Shown piece after piece: positions 9,166-25,769 of a DNA stretch of 32,000 nt. This stretch comes from Coleofasciculus sp. C1-SOL-03. Its GTDB lineage: Bacteria; Cyanobacteriota; Cyanobacteriia; Cyanobacteriales; Coleofasciculaceae. The translations under genes were made by a program, and so were the position numbers. Where the stretch lies: assembly GCA_040220555.1 (NCBI GenBank), contig JAVJUO010000195.1; one strand, written 5' to 3'. The notes below the pieces were generated by a model. It had not been told where the DNA came from. It saw only the letters and a program-made list of their open reading frames with translations, and made no database searches. The first letter of the stretch is position 1; each line of letters opens with the position of its first letter.

Positions 9166-12100
9166 TCAAGCAACGCCTAAAGCGCCTGCACCTGCGGAAG
9201 CCAACGCCGAAACCAGCGCCGTACCAAACAGCCACCAAGCCGCCGCCGCCGCCGCTTTGCGAGTTTCCTCGGCTTGACGTTGGGCTTGATACTTGACTTG
9301 TTCTAAACGCAGTTGGGCTTGTTGTTGAATCCGTTCTGCCCGTTGTAGCACACGAGTGCGAACCTGCTCAATCTGAGCAATCATCTGATTAGCATCGGCT
9401 TCGGAGATATCGTCACGGGAACTGAGAATCGCGACTAGAGTATCCCGATCAAACTGAGACAAGCGATCGCGCAGTGCATCAAACCCCGCTTCTGGGTCAT
9501 CAAACAACGTCCGCACATCTTGCTTGATGCCATCATAATTCAGTTCAGGACGCTCTAAGCTATTCAGGTAGTCGCGAATGCGCTCAAAAATACCGTCAAT
9601 AATCGACTGGATGCGATATTGTACCGTCCGGATTTGGGCGATCGCTTGGTCGCGCACCTTGAGGATTTGATCGACAATCTGGTTAACATCCTCTTCTGAT
9701 ATATCCTCCCGTTGGGATAACAGCGCCACCAGCGTCGAGCGATCAAAGTGGGACAGGCGTTCTTGCAGACTCGACATCCCCGCACCGGGTTCATTCAGCA
9801 GTAATTGCATATCCCGCTTAATTCCTGCGGGATTCAGTTCCTCTTTACCCGTCGAACGCAGATAATCCTCAAAAGCGGCTTGGAAATCTTGGGCGGTTTC
9901 CTGAGTGCGTAGCGCCCAGCGTCGGGGGGCTTTGGCGATACGGCGCAGGGTGGAAAAGACTTGATCAATGATCTGGTTAACCTCTTGTTCACTCAGATCA
10001 TCCCGTTGGGCGAGTAACTGTACCAGAGTATCGCGATCCATTGCTGCTAATCGACGTCTGATTAAGCGAGTTCCAAGCTGTGGATCATCCAGCAGTTTGG
10101 TTAAATCACGCTGAATCCCGTCTGGATTGAGTTCTGGCTTCCCGGTGTTCCGCAGATAGTCAGCGATCGCGGACATGGTTTTGTCGTATTGCTCTTTGGT
10201 TGTATCCGCCATTTTTTGGGGAATACTGCGAACACGAGTCCAAGTCCGTTCAACCTGATCGATAATTTGGTTAATTTGGCTTTCACTCAGATCCTGACGC
10301 TGATTTAACAGTTGTACCAACGTATCCCGGTCAAAGCGTTCGGCGCGTTTCCGCAGCAGCAGCCATCCTGCTTGGGGTTCATCTAAGAGTAATTTGAGTT
10401 CCTGTTCAATGGCTTGAGGATTCAGTTGAGCTTGACCCGTGTTACTCAATATAGACTGAACCTTCATCCACTGGGCTTCAACTTTTGCCTTCAGCGCCTC
10501 TTGAGTTTCTCTGGCGGTATCCAAAACGCGATCGCGGGCTTTCTCCAGTTCTACGATGACGGCTTCCCGTTCTACCGGGGTTAAATCTTGACGTTGTTCG
10601 ACCAATCGCTCAAATAAAGGACGATCAAACTGAGCCAGACGATTGCTCAGGTGTTCATAATCTGCATCTGGATCATGGAGAATCTCCCTAATATTCAGTT
10701 GAATTTTCTCAGGCGTGAGTGCTTCTTTCGGCGTGGATAGGAGATATTGCTCCATCTCGGCTAATAGTGCGATCGCCTCGGCGCGTTCTCTAGCCGCAAT
10801 TGCCACAGATAAGGCTTCTAAGCGAATGATATCCAGCCAAGTCGAAATTTCTCTGATCCGTTCTTCGGTAAAAACACCCCGTTGGGCTAACAAATCAGCA
10901 AAATCTGACCGATTGAGCTGCTCTAATTCCTGCACCACGGTGGCGGGGTCAGCTTCTGGATCATAGAGTACATCTCGGAATTCCCGCTCCAGCGTTGGTC
11001 GATGCATCTGCCAAGAATATTTATTGAGCAGATAATTTTCTACATCGGCTCGCACCGTACTGTATGCTTCATCCTGAGTCCCACCCCGGATCTGAGCAGA
11101 AACTTGACCAACCTGTTCAGTGACTTGGCTTCTGGCGCTTTTAAGCTGACCAACAATTTTCTCCATATCTAAGTCTGATATATCCACACGTCCCATCACC
11201 ATGCCCATCAGACTATGCATACCTGTGGATGCAGCTTGAGCCAGAGGTCCTGGATGTTGGGCTTTGCGGCGCTTGCGGAGTTCTGCCACTAAATCATCGA
11301 GCTTCTCGGTAAACTCATCACTAACAAGCTGATCTGGCGTAGCGGACTGAAGGTATTCCCTAAATTCTGCGATCGCATCTCTAGAAGAAGGGAGCCGATT
11401 CACCGTTTTCTTCCAGACGGCTTCAAGTTGGTCAACAATCCGATTCACATCCCGTGGCGATAAATCGCTGCGGTTACTGACTAAATCAATAAAAGTCTGC
11501 CGATTAATATCACGTAGGCTGTCACTACCAGCAATTTCTTGTAAATTTGGGTCATTGATTAAGTCTTCTAATTCCCCCCGAATCTTTTGCAGATTCAGTT
11601 CTGGAGGTCGTATCGCCTGAATATAATCTTCTAAGTTCTCGCGAATCGTCTCCGGGTCAATTGCAGACCCCAGTTCTCGACGAACTGCTGCGGCTGTTGC
11701 TTCTGCGGTTTGCACCACCTCTTTTTTTACCGCACTCCCGCCAATAGCGGCTGTAGCCGTGCCTACAAGAGCTTGAAACCCTGAGGTAGCGGTATTAACC
11801 ACTGATCCGATCAACGAACCAACGGTTGTCGAACTGACCCAAACCAGTAACGAAAAATACGTTGCCCAAATCACCAACCCGACGATCGCACCCAATCCGG
11901 GATTCTCCAGCAAGCTTAATTCTACGGCAAATAGACAAGCAAAAAATAGCGCCACGGTAACGCTAATTAACGTGGCTAATCCCAATGCTGTACCAACCTT
12001 GCGAATTTTCCCTTGTACGCTTTCTGAGGATTTGTGATCAGACGATGATGAGTCTCCGCCTCCAGCAAAGGAAATTCCCAACGCCACACCCAGATTCGTT

Positions 12101-16893: not shown

Positions 16894-16928
16894 GTCATTG
16901 GTCATTGGTCATTAGTCATTTGTCATTG
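16894..16928. repeat. STRR heptamer array, GTCATTG x5 (the TTGGTCA type), inverse of the array at 15118
   Basis: GTCATTG GTCATTG GTCATTA GTCATTT GTCATTG, beginning immediately after the TAA stop at 16891-16893. Confidence 0.9.
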
Positions 16929-16941
16929 GGGATTGTCAACC

Positions 16942-17569: not shown

Positions 17570-17590
17570 AACCCCATCTCTCCCATCTCC

Positions 17591-17625
17591 TGATAACTGA
17601 TAACTGCTCACTGATAACTGATAAC
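17591..17625. repeat. STRR heptamer array, TGATAAC x5 (one TGCTCAC variant)
   Basis: Read directly from the sequence. It is flanked by a CTCCCTCAT 9-mer array (17523-17546) and CCCATCT-type repeats. Confidence 0.9.
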
Positions 17626-17704
17626 TCCCCCAGCTCCCCCTGCATCCTCATCCCGCGATCGGTACAATAATAGTTAACAAACGACTATCCAACTCTGCAA
17701 ACTG

Positions 17705-18475
17705 ATGACGCCTGACGTAGAAACCTTACCCCAGCAACCCGACACCAGTGAAACCGACAACCTCGACGAACTTCCCAATGATGTCGAGATGTCACTGTTT
17801 GATCACTTAGAAGAGTTGCGGCGGCGCATTTTCTATTCGCTGCTGGCTGTAGCCGTTGGTGCGATCGGCTGCTTTGTCGCGGTTAAATACATTGTTCAGG
17901 TATTGGAAATCCCGGCTCAAGGCGTTAAATTTTTGCAATTGGCTCCCGGTGAATACTTCTTTGTTTCCCTGAAAGTAGCGGGTTACAGTGGTTTGCTGGT
18001 AGCGACACCTTTCATTCTTTACCAAGTGATTCAGTTTGTCTTACCGGGATTAACTCGCCGCGAACAACGCTTGATTGCACCTATAGTTTTCGGTTCGAGT
18101 ATTCTGTTTTTTGTCGGGTTGGCATTTTCCTACATTGCCTTAATTCCCGCCGCGCTGAAATTCTTTATTAGTTACGGCGCTGATGTGGTTGAGCAAGCTT
18201 GGTCAATTGAACGGTATTTTGAATTTGTGCTGCTTCTCATGTTCAGTACAGGGATAGCGTTTCAAGTCCCAATTATTCAGCTTCTCTTGGGAAATTTAGG
18301 CATTGTCTCATCCTCTCAAATGCTTTCCGGTTGGCGGATTGTTATTTTAGGTGCAGTGATTCTCGGTGCTGTGCTAACTCCTTCCACTGATCCTCTGACT
18401 CAAAGCTTACTTGCTGGCGCGGTTATCGGTCTTTACTTTGGCGGAATTGGTCTGGTTAAGCTGTCAGGCAAGTGA
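17705..18475 (+). CDS. tatC: Sec-independent (Tat) protein translocase subunit TatC
   Basis: 256 aa. The motif [19 protein letters not shown] is followed by six TM segments, with FQVPI and TPSTDP motifs typical of TatC. Confidence 0.9.
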
Positions 18476-18513
18476 TTGAGTTCGTAGTTTGTAGTACGGG
18501 AACCTTAGCCTGT

Positions 18514-18519
18514 TATAAT
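18514..18519 (+). promoter_or_regulatory. Candidate -10 box (TATAAT) for the non-coding RNA upstream of iscB
   Basis: A perfect TATAAT hexamer sits in the tatC-iscB spacer. It predicts a transcription start near 18526, about 17 nt before the first conserved-looking helix. There is no convincing -35 element (TTTGTA at 18488-18493 has 20-nt spacing). Confidence 0.4.
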
Positions 18520-18525
18520 TCTGGG

Positions 18526-18762
18526 TTGACTATTAGCGTAACAGCTATCCACTCAACACAGGACAACTGTGGACAAGATAGCCAGACTGAGGCTTAAAAG
18601 CCTACGTTAAAGGGGTTAAGACACCTACGAATGCTTTCCAGTTTGTAGCTCTGTCGTCAAGGATTAAACAGGTGTATTGAGTTAAGCCAGTGTCTTTGAC
18701 CGAACAAGCTTCTTTAACTTTGTCGAGGAACACGTTACCGGAGCAATCCGAGATTAAAACTT
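18526..18762 (+). ncRNA. Candidate omega-RNA (guide + scaffold) of the IscB nuclease; the 5' end is approximate
   Basis: This ~237-nt non-coding stretch lies directly 5' of iscB on the same strand. It contains many nested or long-range helices: GCTATC 18544-18549 with GATAGC 18577-18582; CACAG 18557-18561 with CTGTG 18567-18571; GGCT 18591-18594 with AGCC 18599-18602; AAGACAC 18619-18625 with GTGTCTT 18690-18696; CTACGAA 18625-18631 with TTTGTAG 18642-18648; GTTAAAG 18607-18613 with CTTTAAC 18712-18718. A CGGA-GCAA-TCCG GNRA hairpin sits at 18739-18750. Confidence 0.55.
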
Positions 18763-20064
18763 ATGTTTGTGTTTGTACTGGACAAAAATAAAAAACCACT
18801 CGCTCCTACTCACCCAGCACGCGCAAGAAAACTGCTTCGTACTGGCAGAGCGTCAGTGTTTCGTCGCTTTCCATTCACCGTCATTTTGCACGACACAGAG
18901 GTAGAGAACTCTCAAGTCACGAAATACAGATTAAAAATCGACCCCGGGGCGAAAGTCACAGGGATTGCCATCCTCAAAAGCAATGTGGTGATATGGGCAG
19001 CCGAATTAACTCATAGAGGCTTCGCTATCCGAGATGCACTTACCACCCGTCGTCAATTACGCAGGTCGCGACGCAATCGCCAAACTAGATACCGTAAAGC
19101 ACGGTTCAATAACCGCCGCCGTCCCAAAGGGTGGTTGCCACCATCTCTAAACAGTCGAGTTCAAAATATATTGACTTGGGTAAGGCGATTATCAGGAGTT
19201 TGTCCGATCACGGGCATTAGCCAGGAGCTAGTCAGGTTCGATCTACAAAAGATGCAGAACTCAGAGGTATCTGGCGTCGAGTATCAACAGGGCGAGCTGG
19301 CTGGCTACGAGGTTCGCGAGTATCTCCTGGAAAAGTTCAATCGCTGTTGTGTCTACTGCGGTGCAACCGACACTCGACTAGAAGTCGAACACGTCAAACC
19401 ACGCTCACTTGGCGGCAGTAACCGCGTGAGCAACCTAGCCATCGCTTGTCATAGGTGCAACCAAGCTAAAGGCAATCAAGACATTCGAGAATTCTTGGCA
19501 GGCAAACCAAGTGTTCTCAATCGGATTCTTGCTCAACTCAAGAAGCCATTAGTTGATGCTGCTGCTGTTAATACGACCCGATGGGTTTTGTTTGAGCGAC
19601 TCAAAGCCACGGGGCTACCCGTGGAAACTGGGATGGGTGGACAAACCAAGTTTAATCGCATTCGTCTGGGATTAGAAAAAACTCACTGGGGAGATGCGGT
19701 AGCTGTTGGCAGTTCAACACCCCACCGGGTCATAGTCAAAGTCGTCAAACCTTTGATAATCAAGGCTACAGGTTACGGGCATCGACGGATGTGCAATATC
19801 ACCAAGTTTGGCTTCCCTCAAGTGAATAACAAGGGTGAGCTAGCTGTTCGTTCTAGGGTGAAAAAGGTTCACGGCTTCCAGACTGGGGATATGGTAAAGG
19901 CTGCTGTCCCCAAAGGGAAAAACGCAGGTACTCATGTTGGTCGAGTCACAGTTAGAAAAACCGGGCAGTTTGATATTTCCACATCTATCCAGAAGCTTCA
20001 AATCATTAACCACAAATACTGCACACCAATCCATCGGCATGATGGCTATAGTTATGCCACATAA
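18763..20064 (+). CDS. iscB: IscB-type RNA-guided endonuclease (split RuvC with inserted HNH; RRXRR/bridge helix; PLMP-like N-terminus)
   Basis: 433 aa. PLMP-like N-terminus: FVLDKNKKPLAPTHPARARKLL. RuvC-I: RLKIDPGAKVTGIAIL (D60). Arg-rich helix: TTRRQLRRSRRNRQTRYRKARFNNRRRPKGW. RuvC-II: GISQELVRFD (E155). HNH: CCVYCGATDTRLEVEHVKPRSLGGSNRVSNLAIACHRCNQAKGN. RuvC-III: KTHWGDAVAV (H308, D311). A ~100-aa C-terminal beta-rich domain follows. Confidence 0.85.
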   Translation: MFVFVLDKNKKPLAPTHPARARKLLRTGRASVFRRFPFTVILHDTEVENSQVTKYRLKIDPGAKVTGIAILKSNVVIWAAELTHRGFAIRDALTTRRQLRRSRRNRQTRYRKARFNNRRRPKGWLPPSLNSRVQNILTWVRRLSGVCPITGISQELVRFDLQKMQNSEVSGVEYQQGELAGYEVREYLLEKFNRCCVYCGATDTRLEVEHVKPRSLGGSNRVSNLAIACHRCNQAKGNQDIREFLAGKPSVLNRILAQLKKPLVDAAAVNTTRWVLFERLKATGLPVETGMGGQTKFNRIRLGLEKTHWGDAVAVGSSTPHRVIVKVVKPLIIKATGYGHRRMCNITKFGFPQVNNKGELAVRSRVKKVHGFQTGDMVKAAVPKGKNAGTHVGRVTVRKTGQFDISTSIQKLQIINHKYCTPIHRHDGYSYAT

Positions 20065-20162
20065 TCCACTTTTGTCCATTGATTTAATGACTAGAGGCGC
20101 ACCGATCGCTCAGGAATTGACTCATGTCCGCTTGAATCCCCCTAAATCGTGAAACCTCAGTC

Positions 20163-20222
20163 GGGGCGGGTTTAGTGACATCTGGGTGCAACTGAAAAGA
20201 TAGTCGTGAAACCCGCTCCTAC
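20163..20222. repeat. GGGGCGGGTTT...AAACCCGCTCC(TAC) long hairpin repeat
   Basis: An 11-bp stem (one G-T pair) joins 20163-20173 to 20209-20219, followed by TAC. It belongs to the same family as the hairpins at 13284-13516 and 27202-27225. A half-site AAACCCGCCCCTAC is at 17491-17504. Confidence 0.8.
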
Positions 20223-20253
20223 ACACATTACGCCCCATGCCGTAAAAAGTCAG

Positions 20254-20297
20254 ATCTCCCTCATCTTCCCCATCTTCCTCATCTCCCCCATCTTCCC
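20254..20297. repeat. Imperfect CATCTYCCC-type short tandem repeats abutting the CHAT gene stop
   Basis: ATCTCCC TCATCTTCCC CATCTTCC TCATCTCCCC CATCTTCCCC. The stop codon (CTA on +) is at 20298-20300. Confidence 0.8.
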
Positions 20298-23200
20298 CTA
20301 CCAAGGACTACCAATCATCGTAAACGCTGCCCAATAATAAGGATGAGAGAAATTTTTGTCGGGTAATCCCGATACAACAGGGCGATTTTCCCCTTCTCCC
20401 AACCCACGCAATTCTCCGGATTCCACACGCACCTCCCCTCGCAGCATGGCGATTTGGGCGCGTCGCAGTGCCTCTGCTTTAATCGTTACATCCGGTTGAC
20501 CCAATTGATTGTAGAATTCGCTCATTAGGGCTAAAGAACCGCCATCACTGACGTACCAAAGACTGGCTAACGCTGACTTAACCCCAGCTTTAACCGCTAA
20601 TCCGGCAAAGCCTAACTCCGCTTCTATACTGCCAAAAGCAGTGCGACAGGCGCTTAAAACTAATAGGTCTACTTGGGGCTTCTCATGCCAACCCAGTTGG
20701 CGCATTTGGTCGAGTTGCAGTTTCGTGTCCCAAAGCTGAATATAAGAATTGCTGGGGTCTCCTTCTTGAAAATCCGCATGACTGGCAAGGTGGATGATTT
20801 GCCAAGGCTTTTGTTGGCGCTGAGTTTGCAGATTCTTGAGGGTGAATTGGTCGTTGAGGTAAGCTTCCCCTGACCAGACGTTTTGAGTAATCGTTTCTAG
20901 TTCAATGGGGACAGCAGGTAAGGGTCTTTGGTCAGTGAATTCAGAAGCGCCCATTGCCAGGACTGGGGCATCTTTGACGGGATTGTAGCGGGTATTGGTC
21001 AGGCTGATGCTGGGGATGGAACCGAGGGCGTATTTTTCGATGAGAAATTGTTCCCCGTCGTGTAAAGCCGCCATGGGGATAGTGCGTAAACCTGCGTCCA
21101 TGGAAAAGATGAGGGTGTCAATACCGAGGGCTTCTAGATGCGGTTCTAGGGGGGCAATCATCCAGTTATACAGTTGTTTTGCTGGCGTTAAATAGGCGGT
21201 AGGGCGTCGGTAATTGGTAACGGTTTGGCGGAATTCAACTAGAGTCTTTTTCAGAGTTTTGGCATTAGCGGCGGGAATGGTTTTGCGGATGGGAGTACCG
21301 TCGGGAACAACCATGATGAGTTCCAGTTGGTCGGGTAGGGAAACGGCGTAGACGATAACCGGGTGAGTGCCAGTTTCAGTGGTGATGGTGTTTAGGGTAT
21401 GGCGGATGGTTTCGACGCTGGTTTGTTCGTTGGCGATGTCTTCACCTAAGTAGTCTTCGTATTCTCCTTCAAATAGGTCATCAATGGCGGGAATGGCATC
21501 ATTGAGGTTTTGCGTCAGCAGGTTGGGGATGTTGATGCGTCCCGTGTCTAAGTTTCCTGTACCGGGAATCTGCCAGATAACACGAGATTCCCCGGTGAGG
21601 GGGTCTTGGTTGACTGAAGTTTCAGCACCGACAATATCGCCAATGAGGAAGGCTAAATCGGTTTGGGCGTCGCTGGGAGAATCAGAGGGGCGTTGTGAAC
21701 CTGGTGGGGTGGGGGGTTGAGTAGGGAGTTGAGGGTCAGCACCCGGTGAAGGAGAGGGTTGAGTGGGGGGTTGAGGATCAGAACCGGGTGCGGGGACGGA
21801 GATAATTTGAATGCCGTCTTGGGTGTGGGTGTAGGGAAATTCGGCGGTGGGAGAAATTGTTTGTTCGGGTACGGTATTACCTGTGGTAATTGCCCCGGCT
21901 GTACCGTTGGTGCTGGCATCACCAACCATAAAGGGAGTGACGCCTGCACCGCCGTGACGAATCGTAATTGTACCGCCTGCGGTGACGCCGCCTGTGGAAA
22001 TGCTGGCGGTTGTACCATTGAGATTGGGGAAAGAATCAGTGGCGCGGAAGAAGCTGGGGGTAGTGATTTCTACAGCGCCACCTGTGCCAGCGATGCCGCC
22101 TTCGGTGTTAATGCCTGCGACGGTAATATTGCCATTATCTGAGTTGAGGGTAATGTTACCCCCATTGCTAATAGCTGAATTAGAGACAATGGGTAGGGAA
22201 CCTGTATTGATGCTATCAGCAGCATTGAGGGTAATATCACCGCCATTACCATTACTGGAAAACGAACTGATACTGCCTTGATTGGTAATGGTGTCGTTGA
22301 GGATAGTAATGGCATCACCGCTATCAATGTCAATTGTGCCACCATTTCCATTACCACCGCTAGCGATGATGGTTTGGGTGGTAATATTGCCAGGAGCATT
22401 GAGGGTGATATTGCCACCTGCGCCGTTACTTAAAGAATTGAGAATGCCTGTGATTATTTCGTTGCCACTGGTAAGGTGTATGTCGCCACCATCACCGTTA
22501 ACGCCATTGGTGAGAAGGTCTTGGGTGGTAATTTTGCCTGTAGATTGGAGCGTGATCTCACCACCATTATTATTGCTTAAACCGTTGAGAATGGCTGTGG
22601 TGATGTTGCCGTTGCTATTGAAGTTAATTGTTCCACCTTGACCGTTTTCGCTACCGAATAAAATACTGTCCGTGGTGATATTTCCTGCTGCATCGAAAGT
22701 GATGTTGCCACCATTGGTATTTCCAGAAACGTTGAGAATGGCTGTCGTAATAATATCGCTGTCACTATTCAGATTAATGGTTCCCCCCTGACCATTATCG
22801 CTGCTAGCGATGATAGCGTTGGTGTTAATTTGACCAGCAGCTTGGAGGGTAATCGTGCCGCCAGTACCATTAGTTCCAGCACGAAGTATTCCGCTACTCG
22901 TGTTAATTCCGCCCCGATTATTGATCAGAGTAATATTTCTACCTGTGATATTACTCGCTGTGATATCGCCACTAGAATTATTCGTTAACCCCTCACCTGT
23001 ACCGAGAATTAAGGTTGTATCGCCTGTACCCGAATTGAGTGTAACTTCAGGGGCGATGGAGATGACCGCTTGACCAGGGTCACGATGAGCATTAATCACT
23101 CCATTGGCAGTGGTTTCGTTGGCAATCAGGCTGAGGTTACCATTATTGGTGAAGATAGAGGAATTGACGAGAATGCTGCGCCCTGCCTGAAAGGTAAGTC

Positions 23201-25769
23201 CACCACCATTTCCACTGGGGTTGTTGGTGACAATCGGTTGCTCCACGATAATGTCTGTATTGGCTTGCATCACCACATCAGTACCTGTATTGGTAATTGC
23301 AGTGATGGCGCTAGGGGCAATGCTCACAGATTCAGCAGGGTTGTCATTGAACCTCAAACTTAATTCCCCACCGCTGTCACCATCGCGAGAGAATAAAAAG
23401 GCTTGCCCTGCATCATTGACTCCCCCGGAGGTGTTACGAAAAGCGCCAATCAGGATGTCGCTGCCCACTGCCGCTACTGACCAGCCGAACCTGCCCTCTG
23501 GGACAGGTTGGGGATTGTCGAAGGTTTGCAGCAGTGTTCCATCCCGGTTAAATAAAAAGGCTTGCCCTGCATCATTGACTCCCCCGGAGGTGTTGCGTTG
23601 AGCGCCAATCAGGATGTCGCTGCCCACTGTCGCTACTGACCCGCCGAACCTGCCCTCTGGGACAGGTTGGGGATTGTCGAAGGTTTGCAACAGTGTTCCT
23701 GTTGGGTTAAATAAAAAGGCTTGCCCTGCCTTAGGCAATCCCCCGGATGTGTTATTAAAAGCGCTAATCAGAATGTCGCTGCCCACTGCCGTTACTGACG
23801 CACCGAAATGACCAGGTTCTACAGGTTGGGGATTGTCAAAGGTTTGCAACAGTGTTCCATCCCGGTTAAATAAAAAGGCTTGCCCTGCACCACTGACTCC
23901 CCCAGAGGTGTTACTAAAAGCGCCAATCAGGATGTCGCTGCCCATTGCCGCTACTGAGATGCCGAAGTTGCCACCTGCGACAGGTTGGGGATTGTCAAAG
24001 GTTTGCAGTAGTGTTCCTGTTGGGTTAAATAAAAAGGCTTGCCCTGCCCTAGGCAATCCCCCGGAAGTGTTACCAACAGCGCCAATCAGGATGTCGCTGC
24101 CCACCGTCGCTACTGACCTGCCGAAATGACCATATTCTACAGGTTGGGGATTGTCAAAGGTTTGCAACAGTGTTCCATCCCGGTTAAATAAAAAGGCTTG
24201 CCCTGCATCTTCAAATCCCCCGGAGATGTTGAGGTCAGCGCCAATCAGAATGTCGCTGCCCACTGCCGCTACTGAGAAGCCGAATAAGCCATTTTCTATA
24301 GGTTCGGGATTAAGAAAAGTAACTAAAGGATTATTCGGGTCTCTTATGGTAATTGTTTTCGGGTCAAGCAGCAATGTCCCCGGTTGACCAAAAGATGCCC
24401 CCGCATCCACAAACCCGGTAAAAATCAGCAATTCTTTTCCCGACACCTCCACTAATCCTCCATCTCCCCCACTATCTCCCCCACGAGCGCTGATGTTACC
24501 GTAGAAGCGGGTAAGTTCATCCGACCAAAGAACCACTTCACCCCCATCTGCTGTTACTCCAGACTCTGAGGAAACGCCATCGGCGGTAATTGTCGAATCG
24601 GCACTGACGAGGGTTTGCCTCGCACGGGGTAGGGTATTCTGTCCTTGATAGTCTCCACCAATATGAATGGTGCCGCCACCCCCCATCCCGGAGGCGTCAA
24701 CAGTAGCAGCAAAGAGTCCCACGTTATCGCCTAATACAGTAACATTACCGCCCATCCCAGAGGAGAGGGCATTGCCTGAATCTTCTACATCCGACACGTC
24801 CAGACTACCCGAAACAATCGCTGTTCCAGCTTCATGGGGTATGGTTATCCCGGATTCGGTTAACTGCACCTGTTGAGTCTGAGTCACACTCAACCCTGTT
24901 TCCATCGTTTCAGTTTCTTCTCCGGTGAGTAATGCCGCTAAATCCAGGGGACTCACAGGTAACATTTGCCCTGTACTATCCTCTAGTGGTTCAATCTCCA
25001 AACTCAACACCTGTCCCGGTTGACTAATCCGGACTAAGTTCTCTCCCGGTACAGCAGCGATGGTAATTGTTCCTCCCGGTGCGGTTATTTGCCCTGTGTT
25101 CACCACTGTGCCACCCAGTAAGGTTAAATTCTGCCCTTCTGTGACAGCTAAATCCCCAGCATTGACAATACTGCCCGACTGCGCCAAATCAAAGGCAAAC
25201 TGACTAGGATTCCCAATTAACGTGTCGTAGTTATTATCACCAAAGGCATGAAACCAACCATTCTCCTCAAACCCAATTCCCGTCGCCGTAGTTGCGGTAA
25301 AATCCCCCATCACATTTAACTGGGAATTCGCCCCAAACACAATCCCCGCCGGATTCATTAAAAATAAATTGGCGTTCCCCCCCGTCGCCTGAATCAACCC
25401 ATCAATCATGGAGGCATTCCCGCCCATTACACGGGCTAAGATATTTTGAATATCTGGTGTAGAGAGAAAATTAGCAATCTCATTAGCCGAAAGTCCAAAC
25501 TCCTGGAAACTATGAAACAGGTTTGCCCCATCCCCCGATAGAGAACCCCCAGAAATATCGTACTGATTGCCATCAATCGTCACCACCGTACCCGTACCAT
25601 CCTCAGCCTGGGTAATCGATTGCGCCTGAACCGGAGACATGGAGTGAAGCGTAACCATGCCCAGAGAAATTATTCCCCCTAGAGAAAATAATCCAGGTAA
25701 TTTGCCAACGGAGGAGTTGCACATTTTGCTAACCTGACTTTCACAAATATGCCTAGAATTCTGCCACAT
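20298..25769 (-). CDS. Giant secreted protein: TPS (filamentous-haemagglutinin N-terminal) domain + FG-GAP-like repeats + beta-helix repeats + Pro-rich linker + C-terminal CHAT domain
   Basis: 1823 aa. Signal peptide (the likelier start is M16 at 25724: MCNSSVGKLPGLFSLGGIISLGMVTLHSMSPVQAQ). TPS motifs: ANLFHSFQEFGL, NILARVMGGNASMIDGLI and NLFLMNPAGIVFG. Six copies of FGxSVAxVGSDILIGA...AGQAFLF..GTLLQTFDNPQPV. GGxITL-type beta-helix repeats. Linker PAPGSDPQPPTQPSPSPGADPQLPTQPPTPPG. CHAT His/Cys dyad context: IIHLASHADF and LLVLSACRTA. Confidence 0.9.
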   Translation of the reverse strand: MWQNSRHICESQVSKMCNSSVGKLPGLFSLGGIISLGMVTLHSMSPVQAQSITQAEDGTGTVVTIDGNQYDISGGSLSGDGANLFHSFQEFGLSANEIANFLSTPDIQNILARVMGGNASMIDGLIQATGGNANLFLMNPAGIVFGANSQLNVMGDFTATTATGIGFEENGWFHAFGDNNYDTLIGNPSQFAFDLAQSGSIVNAGDLAVTEGQNLTLLGGTVVNTGQITAPGGTITIAAVPGENLVRISQPGQVLSLEIEPLEDSTGQMLPVSPLDLAALLTGEETETMETGLSVTQTQQVQLTESGITIPHEAGTAIVSGSLDVSDVEDSGNALSSGMGGNVTVLGDNVGLFAATVDASGMGGGGTIHIGGDYQGQNTLPRARQTLVSADSTITADGVSSESGVTADGGEVVLWSDELTRFYGNISARGGDSGGDGGLVEVSGKELLIFTGFVDAGASFGQPGTLLLDPKTITIRDPNNPLVTFLNPEPIENGLFGFSVAAVGSDILIGADLNISGGFEDAGQAFLFNRDGTLLQTFDNPQPVEYGHFGRSVATVGSDILIGAVGNTSGGLPRAGQAFLFNPTGTLLQTFDNPQPVAGGNFGISVAAMGSDILIGAFSNTSGGVSGAGQAFLFNRDGTLLQTFDNPQPVEPGHFGASVTAVGSDILISAFNNTSGGLPKAGQAFLFNPTGTLLQTFDNPQPVPEGRFGGSVATVGSDILIGAQRNTSGGVNDAGQAFLFNRDGTLLQTFDNPQPVPEGRFGWSVAAVGSDILIGAFRNTSGGVNDAGQAFLFSRDGDSGGELSLRFNDNPAESVSIAPSAITAITNTGTDVVMQANTDIIVEQPIVTNNPSGNGGGLTFQAGRSILVNSSIFTNNGNLSLIANETTANGVINAHRDPGQAVISIAPEVTLNSGTGDTTLILGTGEGLTNNSSGDITASNITGRNITLINNRGGINTSSGILRAGTNGTGGTITLQAAGQINTNAIIASSDNGQGGTINLNSDSDIITTAILNVSGNTNGGNITFDAAGNITTDSILFGSENGQGGTINFNSNGNITTAILNGLSNNNGGEITLQSTGKITTQDLLTNGVNGDGGDIHLTSGNEIITGILNSLSNGAGGNITLNAPGNITTQTIIASGGNGNGGTIDIDSGDAITILNDTITNQGSISSFSSNGNGGDITLNAADSINTGSLPIVSNSAISNGGNITLNSDNGNITVAGINTEGGIAGTGGAVEITTPSFFRATDSFPNLNGTTASISTGGVTAGGTITIRHGGAGVTPFMVGDASTNGTAGAITTGNTVPEQTISPTAEFPYTHTQDGIQIISVPAPGSDPQPPTQPSPSPGADPQLPTQPPTPPGSQRPSDSPSDAQTDLAFLIGDIVGAETSVNQDPLTGESRVIWQIPGTGNLDTGRINIPNLLTQNLNDAIPAIDDLFEGEYEDYLGEDIANEQTSVETIRHTLNTITTETGTHPVIVYAVSLPDQLELIMVVPDGTPIRKTIPAANAKTLKKTLVEFRQTVTNYRRPTAYLTPAKQLYNWMIAPLEPHLEALGIDTLIFSMDAGLRTIPMAALHDGEQFLIEKYALGSIPSISLTNTRYNPVKDAPVLAMGASEFTDQRPLPAVPIELETITQNVWSGEAYLNDQFTLKNLQTQRQQKPWQIIHLASHADFQEGDPSNSYIQLWDTKLQLDQMRQLGWHEKPQVDLLVLSACRTAFGSIEAELGFAGLAVKAGVKSALASLWYVSDGGSLALMSEFYNQLGQPDVTIKAEALRRAQIAMLRGEVRVESGELRGLGEGENRPVVSGLPDKNFSHPYYWAAFTMIGSPW
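23368..24321. repeat. Six tandem 159-bp (53-aa) intragenic repeats (FG-GAP-like blades)
   Basis: The anchor GGCTTGCCCTG recurs at 23400, 23559, 23718, 23877, 24036 and 24195, an exact 159-bp period. The outer limits are approximate. Confidence 0.9.

Follow-up and report, generated by a model that had tools for sequence, protein, structure and literature searches.

HEARO RNAs and the ωRNAs of OMEGA systems are reportedly to be credited to Weinberg/Breaker and to Altae-Tran 2021. HEARO is the guide RNA (ωRNA) of IscB nucleases, and its Rfam model RF02033, which does not include the downstream elements of these RNAs, has been used to find ωRNAs (Meers et al. 2023, bioRxiv 10.1101/2023.03.14.532601). 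In the IscB elements described in that work, the scaffold of the ωRNA is the transposon end, the guide lies outside, and transcription must start outside; a strong bias for a co-oriented gene upstream of the elements was also reported, as was a homing/retention mechanism for OMEGA systems (Meers et al. 2023). From a biochemical perspective, a guide of ~17 nt is functional and 16 nt are sufficient, residues D61, E193, and H247 of OgeuIscB are named as catalytic, and the ωRNA forms a nexus pseudoknot of 4 bp, in which the loop of a hairpin pairs with bases immediately 3′ of the nexus stem, and the disruption of which abolishes activity (Kato 2022, PMC9640706).

Here, we compare these systems with an interval of a Coleofasciculus contig (positions 18514-18762 of the window, that is, of the whole 32-kb stretch of DNA that was analysed), which a sequence-only reading had put forward as a candidate IscB ωRNA. 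We conclude with high confidence that 18544-18762 is the scaffold of an IscB ωRNA, with which a non-autonomous IS200/IS605-type element of ~1.56 kb, inserted downstream of tatC, begins. The flagged stretch is thus a known kind of object, belonging to a curated and structurally solved family.

A full-length HEARO match between tatC and iscB

The interval is bordered by tatC (17705-18475; Pfam TatC 1e-64) on one side and by iscB on the other, and the features of the locus are as follows.

18511-18519, + strand: TGTTATAAT, an extended -10-like box (TG at 18511-18512, TATAAT at 18514-18519) in the host flank, 25 nt ahead of the scaffold; possible start signal for the ωRNA, with a predicted start near 18526
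18526-18543, + strand: predicted guide segment, host DNA 3′ of tatC; 3′ end fixed at 18543
18528-18543, + strand: 16-nt core of the predicted guide, GACUAUUAGCGUAACA, of published guide length
18544-18738, + strand: ωRNA scaffold, HEARO RF02033; Rfam match, with the same helices in the minimum free energy (MFE) fold
18544-20102, + strand: mobile element, non-autonomous IS200/IS605-type, ~1558 bp; from its copies and an empty site
18763-20064, + strand: iscB, 433 aa, with PLMP/RRXRR, RuvC, and HNH domains; from Pfam and matches to IscB proteins in the PDB
20103-20109, + strand: CGATCGC, target-site DNA at the far element end and predicted target-adjacent motif (TAM); from conservation and an element-free allele

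The covariance-model scan that the sequence-only reading had proposed as a check returned HEARO on the + strand, with 124.1 bits (E 1.5e-26) against a curated gathering threshold of 83 bits. The match runs end to end (model positions 1-211 of 211), is the sole match to any Rfam family in the whole window, and ends 24 nt before the ATG of iscB (18763), on the same strand, the structured region itself extending to 18750. The candidate ωRNA is therefore borne out by a full-length match adjoining an intact iscB. Every string quoted in that reading is present where it had been placed, and the ensemble of complementary strings is far beyond chance. When an IscB protein search was conducted with one genome per species, yielding 80 loci that are nearly all cyanobacterial, the ωRNA sequence was found to be kept upstream of 75 of these 80 related iscB genes.

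As for the Cas9-like nuclease, Pfam recognizes RRXRR (PF14239, 6e-74) and HNH (PF01844, 2.6e-12) in the iscB product, which also matches the solved structures of TbaIscB (3e-43), HfmIscB (7e-29), and OgeuIscB (5.6e-25). Its residues D60, E155, and H210 align with D61, E193, and H247 of OgeuIscB, H308 and D311 lie within the RuvC-III "H..D" motif, and all five catalytic positions are thus present. The iscB open reading frame is intact and full length.

Helices and pseudoknot of the scaffold

The fold was examined in 66 homologous upstream regions, aligned with MAFFT in a structure-blind manner, in which pairs were counted for the Rfam structure and for the candidate pseudoknot. Its elements in this copy are listed below.

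18544-18582, + strand: guide-adaptor hairpin, GCUAUC/GAUAGC around CACAG-GACAA-CUGUG (Rfam alignment)
18585-18724, + strand: nexus stem, GACUG 18585-89 with UUGUC 18720-24, enclosing the multiloop (Rfam structure)
18590-18603, + strand: small hairpin, AGGCU-UAAA-AGCCU (Rfam alignment, MFE fold)
18606-18718, + strand: central stem, GUUAAAGGGGU 18606-16 with GCUUCUUUAAC 18708-18, containing GTTAAAG/CTTTAAC
18621-18654, + strand: pseudoknot hairpin, AC/GU plus CUACGAAU/GUUUGUAG, loop 18633-18640, containing CTACGAA/TTTGTAG
18636-18639, + strand: 5′ strand of the nexus pseudoknot, UUCC, in the hairpin loop, pairing with 18727-18730
18656-18700, + strand: third hairpin, GUCAAGGAU/GUCUUUGAC, then AC/GU, then GGUGUAU/UUAAGCC (covariation)
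18727-18730, + strand: 3′ strand of the nexus pseudoknot, GGAA, separated from the 3′ side of the nexus stem by G18725 and A18726
18739-18750, + strand: terminal GNRA hairpin, CGGA-GCAA-UCCG, outside the Rfam model, followed by GAG and the start codon

Across the 66 homologues, 83.4% of the cells form standard pairs and 53 of the 68 pairs show changes on both sides. The covariation score reaches 0.467, versus 0.173 in shuffled alignments (0 of 500 attain the observed value) and 0.07-0.13 when the partners are slid by 1-3 columns, so that the compensatory changes that the sequence-only reading had suggested looking for are indeed present. The MFE fold of the single sequence (ViennaRNA, -64 kcal/mol) reproduces the Rfam helices, with a folding energy z of -2.28, meaning that the signal of thermodynamics alone is only modest.

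The support can be followed helix by helix, bearing in mind that two regions are poorly aligned by MAFFT, namely the vicinity of hairpin 18590-18603 and, in sequences other than those of the GCTAT subfamily, the variable first hairpin. The outer helix of the guide-adaptor hairpin (GCTATC/GATAGC, 18544-49/18577-82, around CACAG/CTGTG, 18557-61/18567-71) is kept in the 18-member GCTAT subfamily, where its sixth pair covaries (CG 12, AU 5, UA 4), and this hairpin is the most variable part across the wider family. The nexus stem is unevenly supported: all 66 sequences pair at column 107/359 and, of the next four pairs, the two 5′-most covary (CG/AU/UA) and the other two are for the most part left unpaired by MAFFT; this copy carries one U-U. 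In the small hairpin, which contains the GGCT-TAAA-AGCC (18591-18602) of the earlier reading, 3 of 5 pairs covary in a gappy part of the alignment. The best supported helices are the central stem (columns 148-155/345-352; 8 pairs, 93% paired, 6 with both-side changes), the hairpin CUACGAAU/GUUUGUAG (94% paired, both-side changes in 6 of 8 pairs), and the outer helix of the third hairpin (93% paired, 7 of 8 pairs with both-side changes). The inner helix of the latter is 76% paired and mismatched in this copy at 2 of 7 pairs. Lastly, the terminal GNRA hairpin, which lies 12 nt before the ATG, is 74% paired with both-side changes in 4 of 4 pairs.

With respect to the pseudoknot, the pairing UUCC 18636-18639/GGAA 18727-18730 is 97% paired on its own, and its tetrads covary (UGCC/GGCA in 24 sequences, UUCC/GGAA in 20, UGCU/AGCG in 12), with UA/GC and UA/CG swaps. 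It totals 35 double-change cells, a number attained in none of 500 shuffles (which give 10), and the pairing collapses when the partners are slid. Judged by this covariation and by its position, it is the family's real pseudoknot, namely the known nexus pseudoknot.

Six of the eight pairings that had been drawn from the single sequence are supported by covariation in the homologues (GCTATC/GATAGC, CACAG/CTGTG, GGCT/AGCC, CTACGAA/TTTGTAG, GTTAAAG/CTTTAAC, and CGGA-GCAA-TCCG). The remaining two, a helix AAGACAC/GTGTCTT and a pseudoknot GGCTTAA/TTAAGCC, are neither conserved nor covarying: GTGTCTT belongs to the covarying GUCAAGGAU/GUCUUUGAC, and the bases of the proposed pseudoknot are used by the third hairpin. 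These pairings are complementary in this copy and extendable to 11/14 bases; we reject them because they compete with covarying helices and because they pair no better than shuffles (59.5% paired vs. 60.4%; covariation 0.106 vs. 0.113).

Element ends, predicted guide, and possible routes of transcription

For the analysis of the junction, we took advantage of 17 independent insertions drawn from the wider "GCTAT" subfamily. The most common base has a frequency of 0.29-0.53 at each position from -20 to -1 and of 1.00 throughout +1 to +5, conservation jumping from ~0.4 to 1.0 exactly at 18543|18544. According to this comparison, the conserved scaffold begins at G18544, where both the Rfam match starts and the earlier reading had drawn its first helix. 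The 5′ end of the scaffold is the transposon end, upstream of which the flank differs among copies, and the start can be set exactly at 18544 because the element copies share only 18544-20109 and because an element-free tatC allele joins both flanks.

The three closest copies, found in Coleofasciculus MAGs (L001, L002, and L004), are 93-95% identical in DNA over exactly 18544-20109 with unrelated flanks, and the right-hand boundary is unchanged in more distant copies; as L001 and L002 represent the same site, three independent insertions are counted. A search of metagenomes for an element-free site by an exact flank-to-flank pattern found none, and the exact TatC sequence occurs on two further contigs, in both of which the element is present. 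The element-free allele was reached via TatC relatives: a 26.7-kb metagenome contig, L083, whose TatC is 97% identical and whose DNA is 92% identical up to window position 18548. Its junction reads …CCTGTTACAATTCTGGGTTGACTACTAGCGTAACA-GCGATAGT-TCAGGAATTGAC…, that is, left flank, GCGATAGT, and right flank (the left side can also be written …CTAGCGTAACA-GCGATAGT…), when the window reads …CCTGTTATAATTCTGGGTTGACTATTAGCGTAACA|GCTATCC… at the start of the element and …GCGCACCGATCGC|TCAGGAATTGAC… at its end; the reconstructed donor joint would be …GCGTAACA-GCGATCGC-TCAGG…. Because L083 joins both flanks, the allele pair indicates a simple ~1558-bp insertion next to GCGAT.., without target duplication, the ends of which are ambiguous by 1 nt because G18544 could belong to either side. 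The element thus has sharp identical ends, no target duplication, and a motif adjoining one end only, as in the IS200/IS605 type. We found no convincing inverted or direct repeat linking its ends, and no Y1 TnpA among the 8 window ORFs scanned with Pfam, out of 20 of at least 120 aa; on the basis of the scanned ORFs, mobility would depend on a copy elsewhere.

The far end is CGATC in 14 of 14 independent copies of the subfamily, extended to CGATCGC in 12 of them, when the flank at the opposite end is devoid of conservation. The counterpart in L083 of the 7-8 bases CCGATCGC (20102-20109) is GCGATAGT, which makes CCGATCGC target DNA, outside the element. On this basis, CGATC(GC) is likely the TAM. 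CGATCGC also represents 7 of the 8 bases of the cyanobacterial HIP1 palindrome (GCGATCGC), which occurs 26 times in the window versus 0.29 expected, and none of the 15 best-ranked among 333 papers containing two or more of the terms links GCGATCGC with IscB, HEARO, IS605, or TnpB. The HIP1-like TAM is a modest lead only.

The junction can also be read as G^CGATCGC, which would put the element inside a HIP1 site. Other IscB subfamilies among the loci compared end differently, e.g., GTCAAC…ATGATGAA in Ectothiorhodospira.

On the other side, the guide would be supplied by the last 16-18 nt of host DNA, up to 18543, with 18528-18543 as core because a ~17-nt guide is published and 16 nt are enough (PMC9640706). 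The guide previously placed at 18526-18542 (TTGACTATTAGCGTAAC) holds as to its position and ~17-nt length, its 3′ end being one base further, at 18543. Elsewhere in the window, the only match to the guide is a 3-mismatch one at 10146-10161, which we judged to be due to chance. In L083, one guide base differs (at 18533) and the motif is CGATA instead of the CGATC seen elsewhere, and because of these two differences, the L083 allele itself may be no substrate.

A18543 had been left unassigned in the sequence-only reading, between the guide and the first helix.

The way this guide would come to be transcribed admits two plausible and, in our view, equally possible routes, which are not mutually exclusive. 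A perfect TATAAT does stand upstream of the scaffold, as noted beforehand, but it is not the element's own, contrary to what had been supposed: rather than an element-borne sigma-70-type promoter, it is a box located outside the element, in host DNA, already found as TACAAT in L083 and unmatched upstream of other copies. What is notable is where it lies rather than that it occurs, as TATAAT is found 9 times in the window versus 15.5 expected and TGNTATAAT once versus 0.91 expected. Still, the box may drive the ωRNA here. Under this first route, which we consider to have a little less than an even chance, the ωRNA would be a primary transcript from the host-derived TGTTATAAT, starting near 18526 and carrying an 18-nt guide without any 5′ processing. 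The perfect -10 with its upstream TG speaks for it, as does its spacing, which gives an 18-nt 5′ segment near the ~17 nt used by IscB (PMC9640706). Moreover, the occupied alleles harbor TATAAT (identically so in two other occupied contigs) when the empty allele harbors the weaker TACAAT, and retained insertions have been argued to sit where outside transcription exists (Meers et al. 2023). However, no usable -35 accompanies the box, which the consensus promoter scan did not call; it is host DNA older than the insertion, facing a convergent gene in L083 and hence having no obvious native role; and a 5/6 match within a positional window of ~10 nt is not rare. In addition, the 70-nt segments preceding 16 other independent copies share no relationship in sequence and contain 5 hexamers of the -10 type versus ~8 by chance (a rough estimate); with flanks unrelated and -10-like hexamers not enriched, we rejected a family-wide promoter upstream of the scaffold. 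The second route, on which we set the same probability of nearly one half, is read-through from tatC, followed by trimming of the 5′ end of the RNA as far as the IscB-protected part. tatC is co-oriented, its stop (18475) lies 68 nt before the scaffold, and no terminator-like site stands between them. A co-oriented open frame is also found upstream in 11 of 15 subfamily loci (a rough survey), which is the same orientation bias as that seen across IscB elements (Meers et al. 2023). This route nevertheless has to assume a 5′ trimming activity for the IscB ωRNA.

More radical departures from an active guide RNA seem much less probable. The structured region could act chiefly in cis, as an iscB mRNA leader controlling translation, rather than as a trans-acting guide RNA, since no terminator separates the scaffold from the adjoining start codon and a conserved GAG/GGAG, resembling a ribosome-binding site, comes directly after the terminal hairpin; yet this family has been established by experiment and structure as the IscB guide RNA (PMC9640706; Meers et al. 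2023), and a sharp conservation edge at the transposon end with a variable 5′ flank fits a guide, which makes the leader function extremely improbable. Nor is this copy likely to be a decaying relic that has lost its function. One inner helix carries 2 mismatches and TnpA was not found among the window ORFs scanned, but iscB is full length with every catalytic residue kept, the Rfam score is far over threshold, and copies 93-95% identical at at least 3 distinct sites in related genomes point to recent mobility; we thus deem decay quite unlikely, if somewhat less so than a leader function.

If the locus does encode a functional IscB guide RNA, then, by analogy with the published homing/retention system, transcription would enter from the host DNA and yield an RNA composed of the last 16-18 host bases (to 18543) as guide and of the scaffold, which IscB would bind. 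The IscB-ωRNA complex could then recognize the element-free site, through the guide match GACTATTAGCGTAACA followed by CGATC(GC), and cut it, and the cut would force recombinational repair from the occupied copy, whereby the element would be retained or spread. The occupied site would escape, as the guide match there precedes GCTATC (the start of the scaffold) and not GCGATC. The analysis itself shows to which family the RNA belongs, where its scaffold starts, and how it folds with its pseudoknot, together with an intact nuclease, the ends of the element, and an empty site; that the RNA is transcribed, where its 5′ end lies, what its TAM is, and that the target is cut are inferred from this published precedent and from the features described above. 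More tentatively, and as a possibility that we do not favor, this cyanobacterial IscB lineage may use a HIP1-derived CGATC (usually CGATCGC) as both TAM and landing site and, at this locus, a captured pre-existing host -10-like box, possibly sharpened from TACAAT to TATAAT, may make a primary ωRNA with a guide of the right length.

Implications and comparison with described IscB systems

With regard to annotation, the tatC-iscB spacer is settled as a guide-RNA gene, its junction is fixed at 18543|18544, and its fold and the position of its pseudoknot are corrected. With regard to biology, this is one more case of a described system, with two points that go modestly beyond routine, namely the allele pair and the HIP1-like motif. 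The natural pair of occupied and empty alleles provides a target with which the homing model could readily be tested in a cyanobacterium. If CGATCGC were indeed the TAM, an OMEGA element would be tied to a long-puzzling genomic repeat and a GC-rich TAM would be added to the IscB toolbox; and if the HIP1-derived landing site were real, GCGATCGC, the most over-represented octamer of cyanobacterial genomes, would double as a docking site for an RNA-guided transposon.

Compared with the HEARO family (RF02033), the locus has the same position and strand relative to iscB, the same nested helices along a full-length match over threshold, and the same encoding of the guide outside the transposon end. 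The differences are nothing categorical: the GCTAT subfamily starts with GCUAUC when the Rfam consensus starts with GUCAAC, and the first hairpin is short here, with 2 nt in place of an 18-nt insert in the model.

The same order of elements is found in the OgeuIscB-ωRNA complex (PDB 7XHT/7UTN; PMC9640706), that is, guide, adaptor hairpin, nexus stem, and central stem, together with a hairpin whose loop pairs, as a pseudoknot of 4 bp, with the bases directly 3′ of the nexus stem, and a single-stranded linker leading to terminal hairpin(s). The 3′ strand of the pseudoknot at 18727-18730 occupies a position analogous to G155-G158 of the OgeuIscB ωRNA (PMC9640706), and the catalytic D61, E193, and H247 are matched in the protein. 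In contrast, the similarity between the two proteins is distant (E 5.6e-25 with partial coverage; 433 aa here vs. 496 aa), the RNA has here only one terminal hairpin, along with a supplementary small hairpin (18590-18603), and the TAM reported for OgeuIscB is NNRR/NWRRNA, when CGATC(GC) is predicted here.

Lastly, this element resembles the IS200/IS605 elements of GstIscB (Meers et al. 2023) in being non-autonomous, in having its scaffold at one transposon end and its (here predicted) TAM adjoining the other, and in following a co-oriented gene. As in GstIscB, the start of the scaffold (GCTATC) resembles yet differs from the TAM-side motif (GCGATC), which would prevent self-cleavage. It differs from GstIscB in that no TnpA partner was identified among the window ORFs scanned, and in that the TAM of GstIscB is AT-rich, whereas the motif predicted here is GC-rich and corresponds to the HIP1-like CGATCGC.

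The right-end motif and the element-free allele

At the element end opposite the ωRNA, CGATC adjoins 14 of the 14 independent copies whose right ends we compared (L001-L005, L017, L029, L033, L045, L056, L058, L071, L075 and L079, all homologous iscB loci), and in 12 of these it extends to CGATCGC, a match to seven of the eight bases of HIP1, the cyanobacterial palindrome GCGATCGC; the window contains 26 HIP1 sites, where 0.29 would be expected. The corresponding positions, along with those of a natural empty allele of the tatC locus carried by a metagenome contig (L083), are as follows:

Window 20102-20109: motif at the right element end
L083 3800-3860 (JGI11826J13684_1128165): natural empty allele of the tatC locus, compared with window 18500-18543 and 20102-20121

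Because the empty allele marks the CGATC(GC) bases as target DNA, they would probably represent a target-adjacent motif (TAM) or an insertion motif. The same allele differs from the occupied one in its -10 box (TACAAT vs TATAAT), at a single guide position (C in place of T18533) and in the motif next to the insertion point (GCGATAGT vs CCGATCGC). L083 could be an escape variant or else merely a diverged strain. Within the window, the sole further near-match to the 16-nt guide lies at 10146-10161 on the minus strand (GACTATCTGCGGAACA); with three mismatches, it was judged a chance occurrence and rejected as a guide target.

Repeats and a convergent ORF around the locus

On the right, L083 and the window share only 12 nt of flank, the genomes being rearranged past that point. 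The surroundings of the locus comprise:

Window 16894-16935, 17572-17639, 20159-20225 and 20249-20293: short dispersed repeats
Window 20298-25769, minus strand: 1823-aa ORF, convergent with iscB

The repeats, several further occurrences of which are found in both orientations in L083, include the source region of spurious 'GELGEL…' ORFs; they probably belong among the small repeat elements of cyanobacteria, and may account for the rearrangement right of the insertion. As for the ORF, it harbors Gly/Asn-rich repetitive segments, and by eye its C-terminal region resembles CHAT; at the matching position of L083 the ORF has no counterpart.

ωRNA copies and neighboring genes

Variation among ωRNA copies, and the boundary with iscB, were located in the window, in a Prochloron sp. 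chromosome (L014) and in a structure-blind MAFFT alignment of ωRNA regions (A1):

L014 (OZ240666.1) 2342-2524 and 2809-2992: tandem ωRNA-like sequences
A1 columns 203-246 (L056/L075), 305-330 (L021) and 360-384 (L008/L074): GC-rich insertions
Window 18739-18762, A1 columns 400-423 in homologues: terminal hairpin and GAG/GGAG

The tandem pair lies 5' of one iscB, about 470 nt apart, and its upstream member, devoid of its own ORF, could represent either a stand-alone ωRNA or what is left of a second insertion. The 25-45-nt GC-rich insertions occupy peripheral points of some copies (beside the pseudoknot hairpin, within the third hairpin and 3' of the nexus stem), suggesting either that the RNA tolerates expansion there or that these are nested mini-insertions.

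Directly 3' of the terminal tetraloop hairpin, a conserved GAG/GGAG precedes the iscB start codon by 8-12 nt. Since the hairpin adjoins this Shine-Dalgarno-like motif, and its 3' arm overlaps it in many homologues, the arrangement hints that ωRNA folding might be coupled to iscB translation.

An opposite-strand frame adjoins the element in L001 and L033. Overall, among the 15 subfamily loci in which a frame open for 120 codons or more lies within 700 nt upstream of the scaffold start (L001, L003-L005, L017-L075), this frame is co-oriented with iscB in 11, which matches the published orientation bias of IscB elements.
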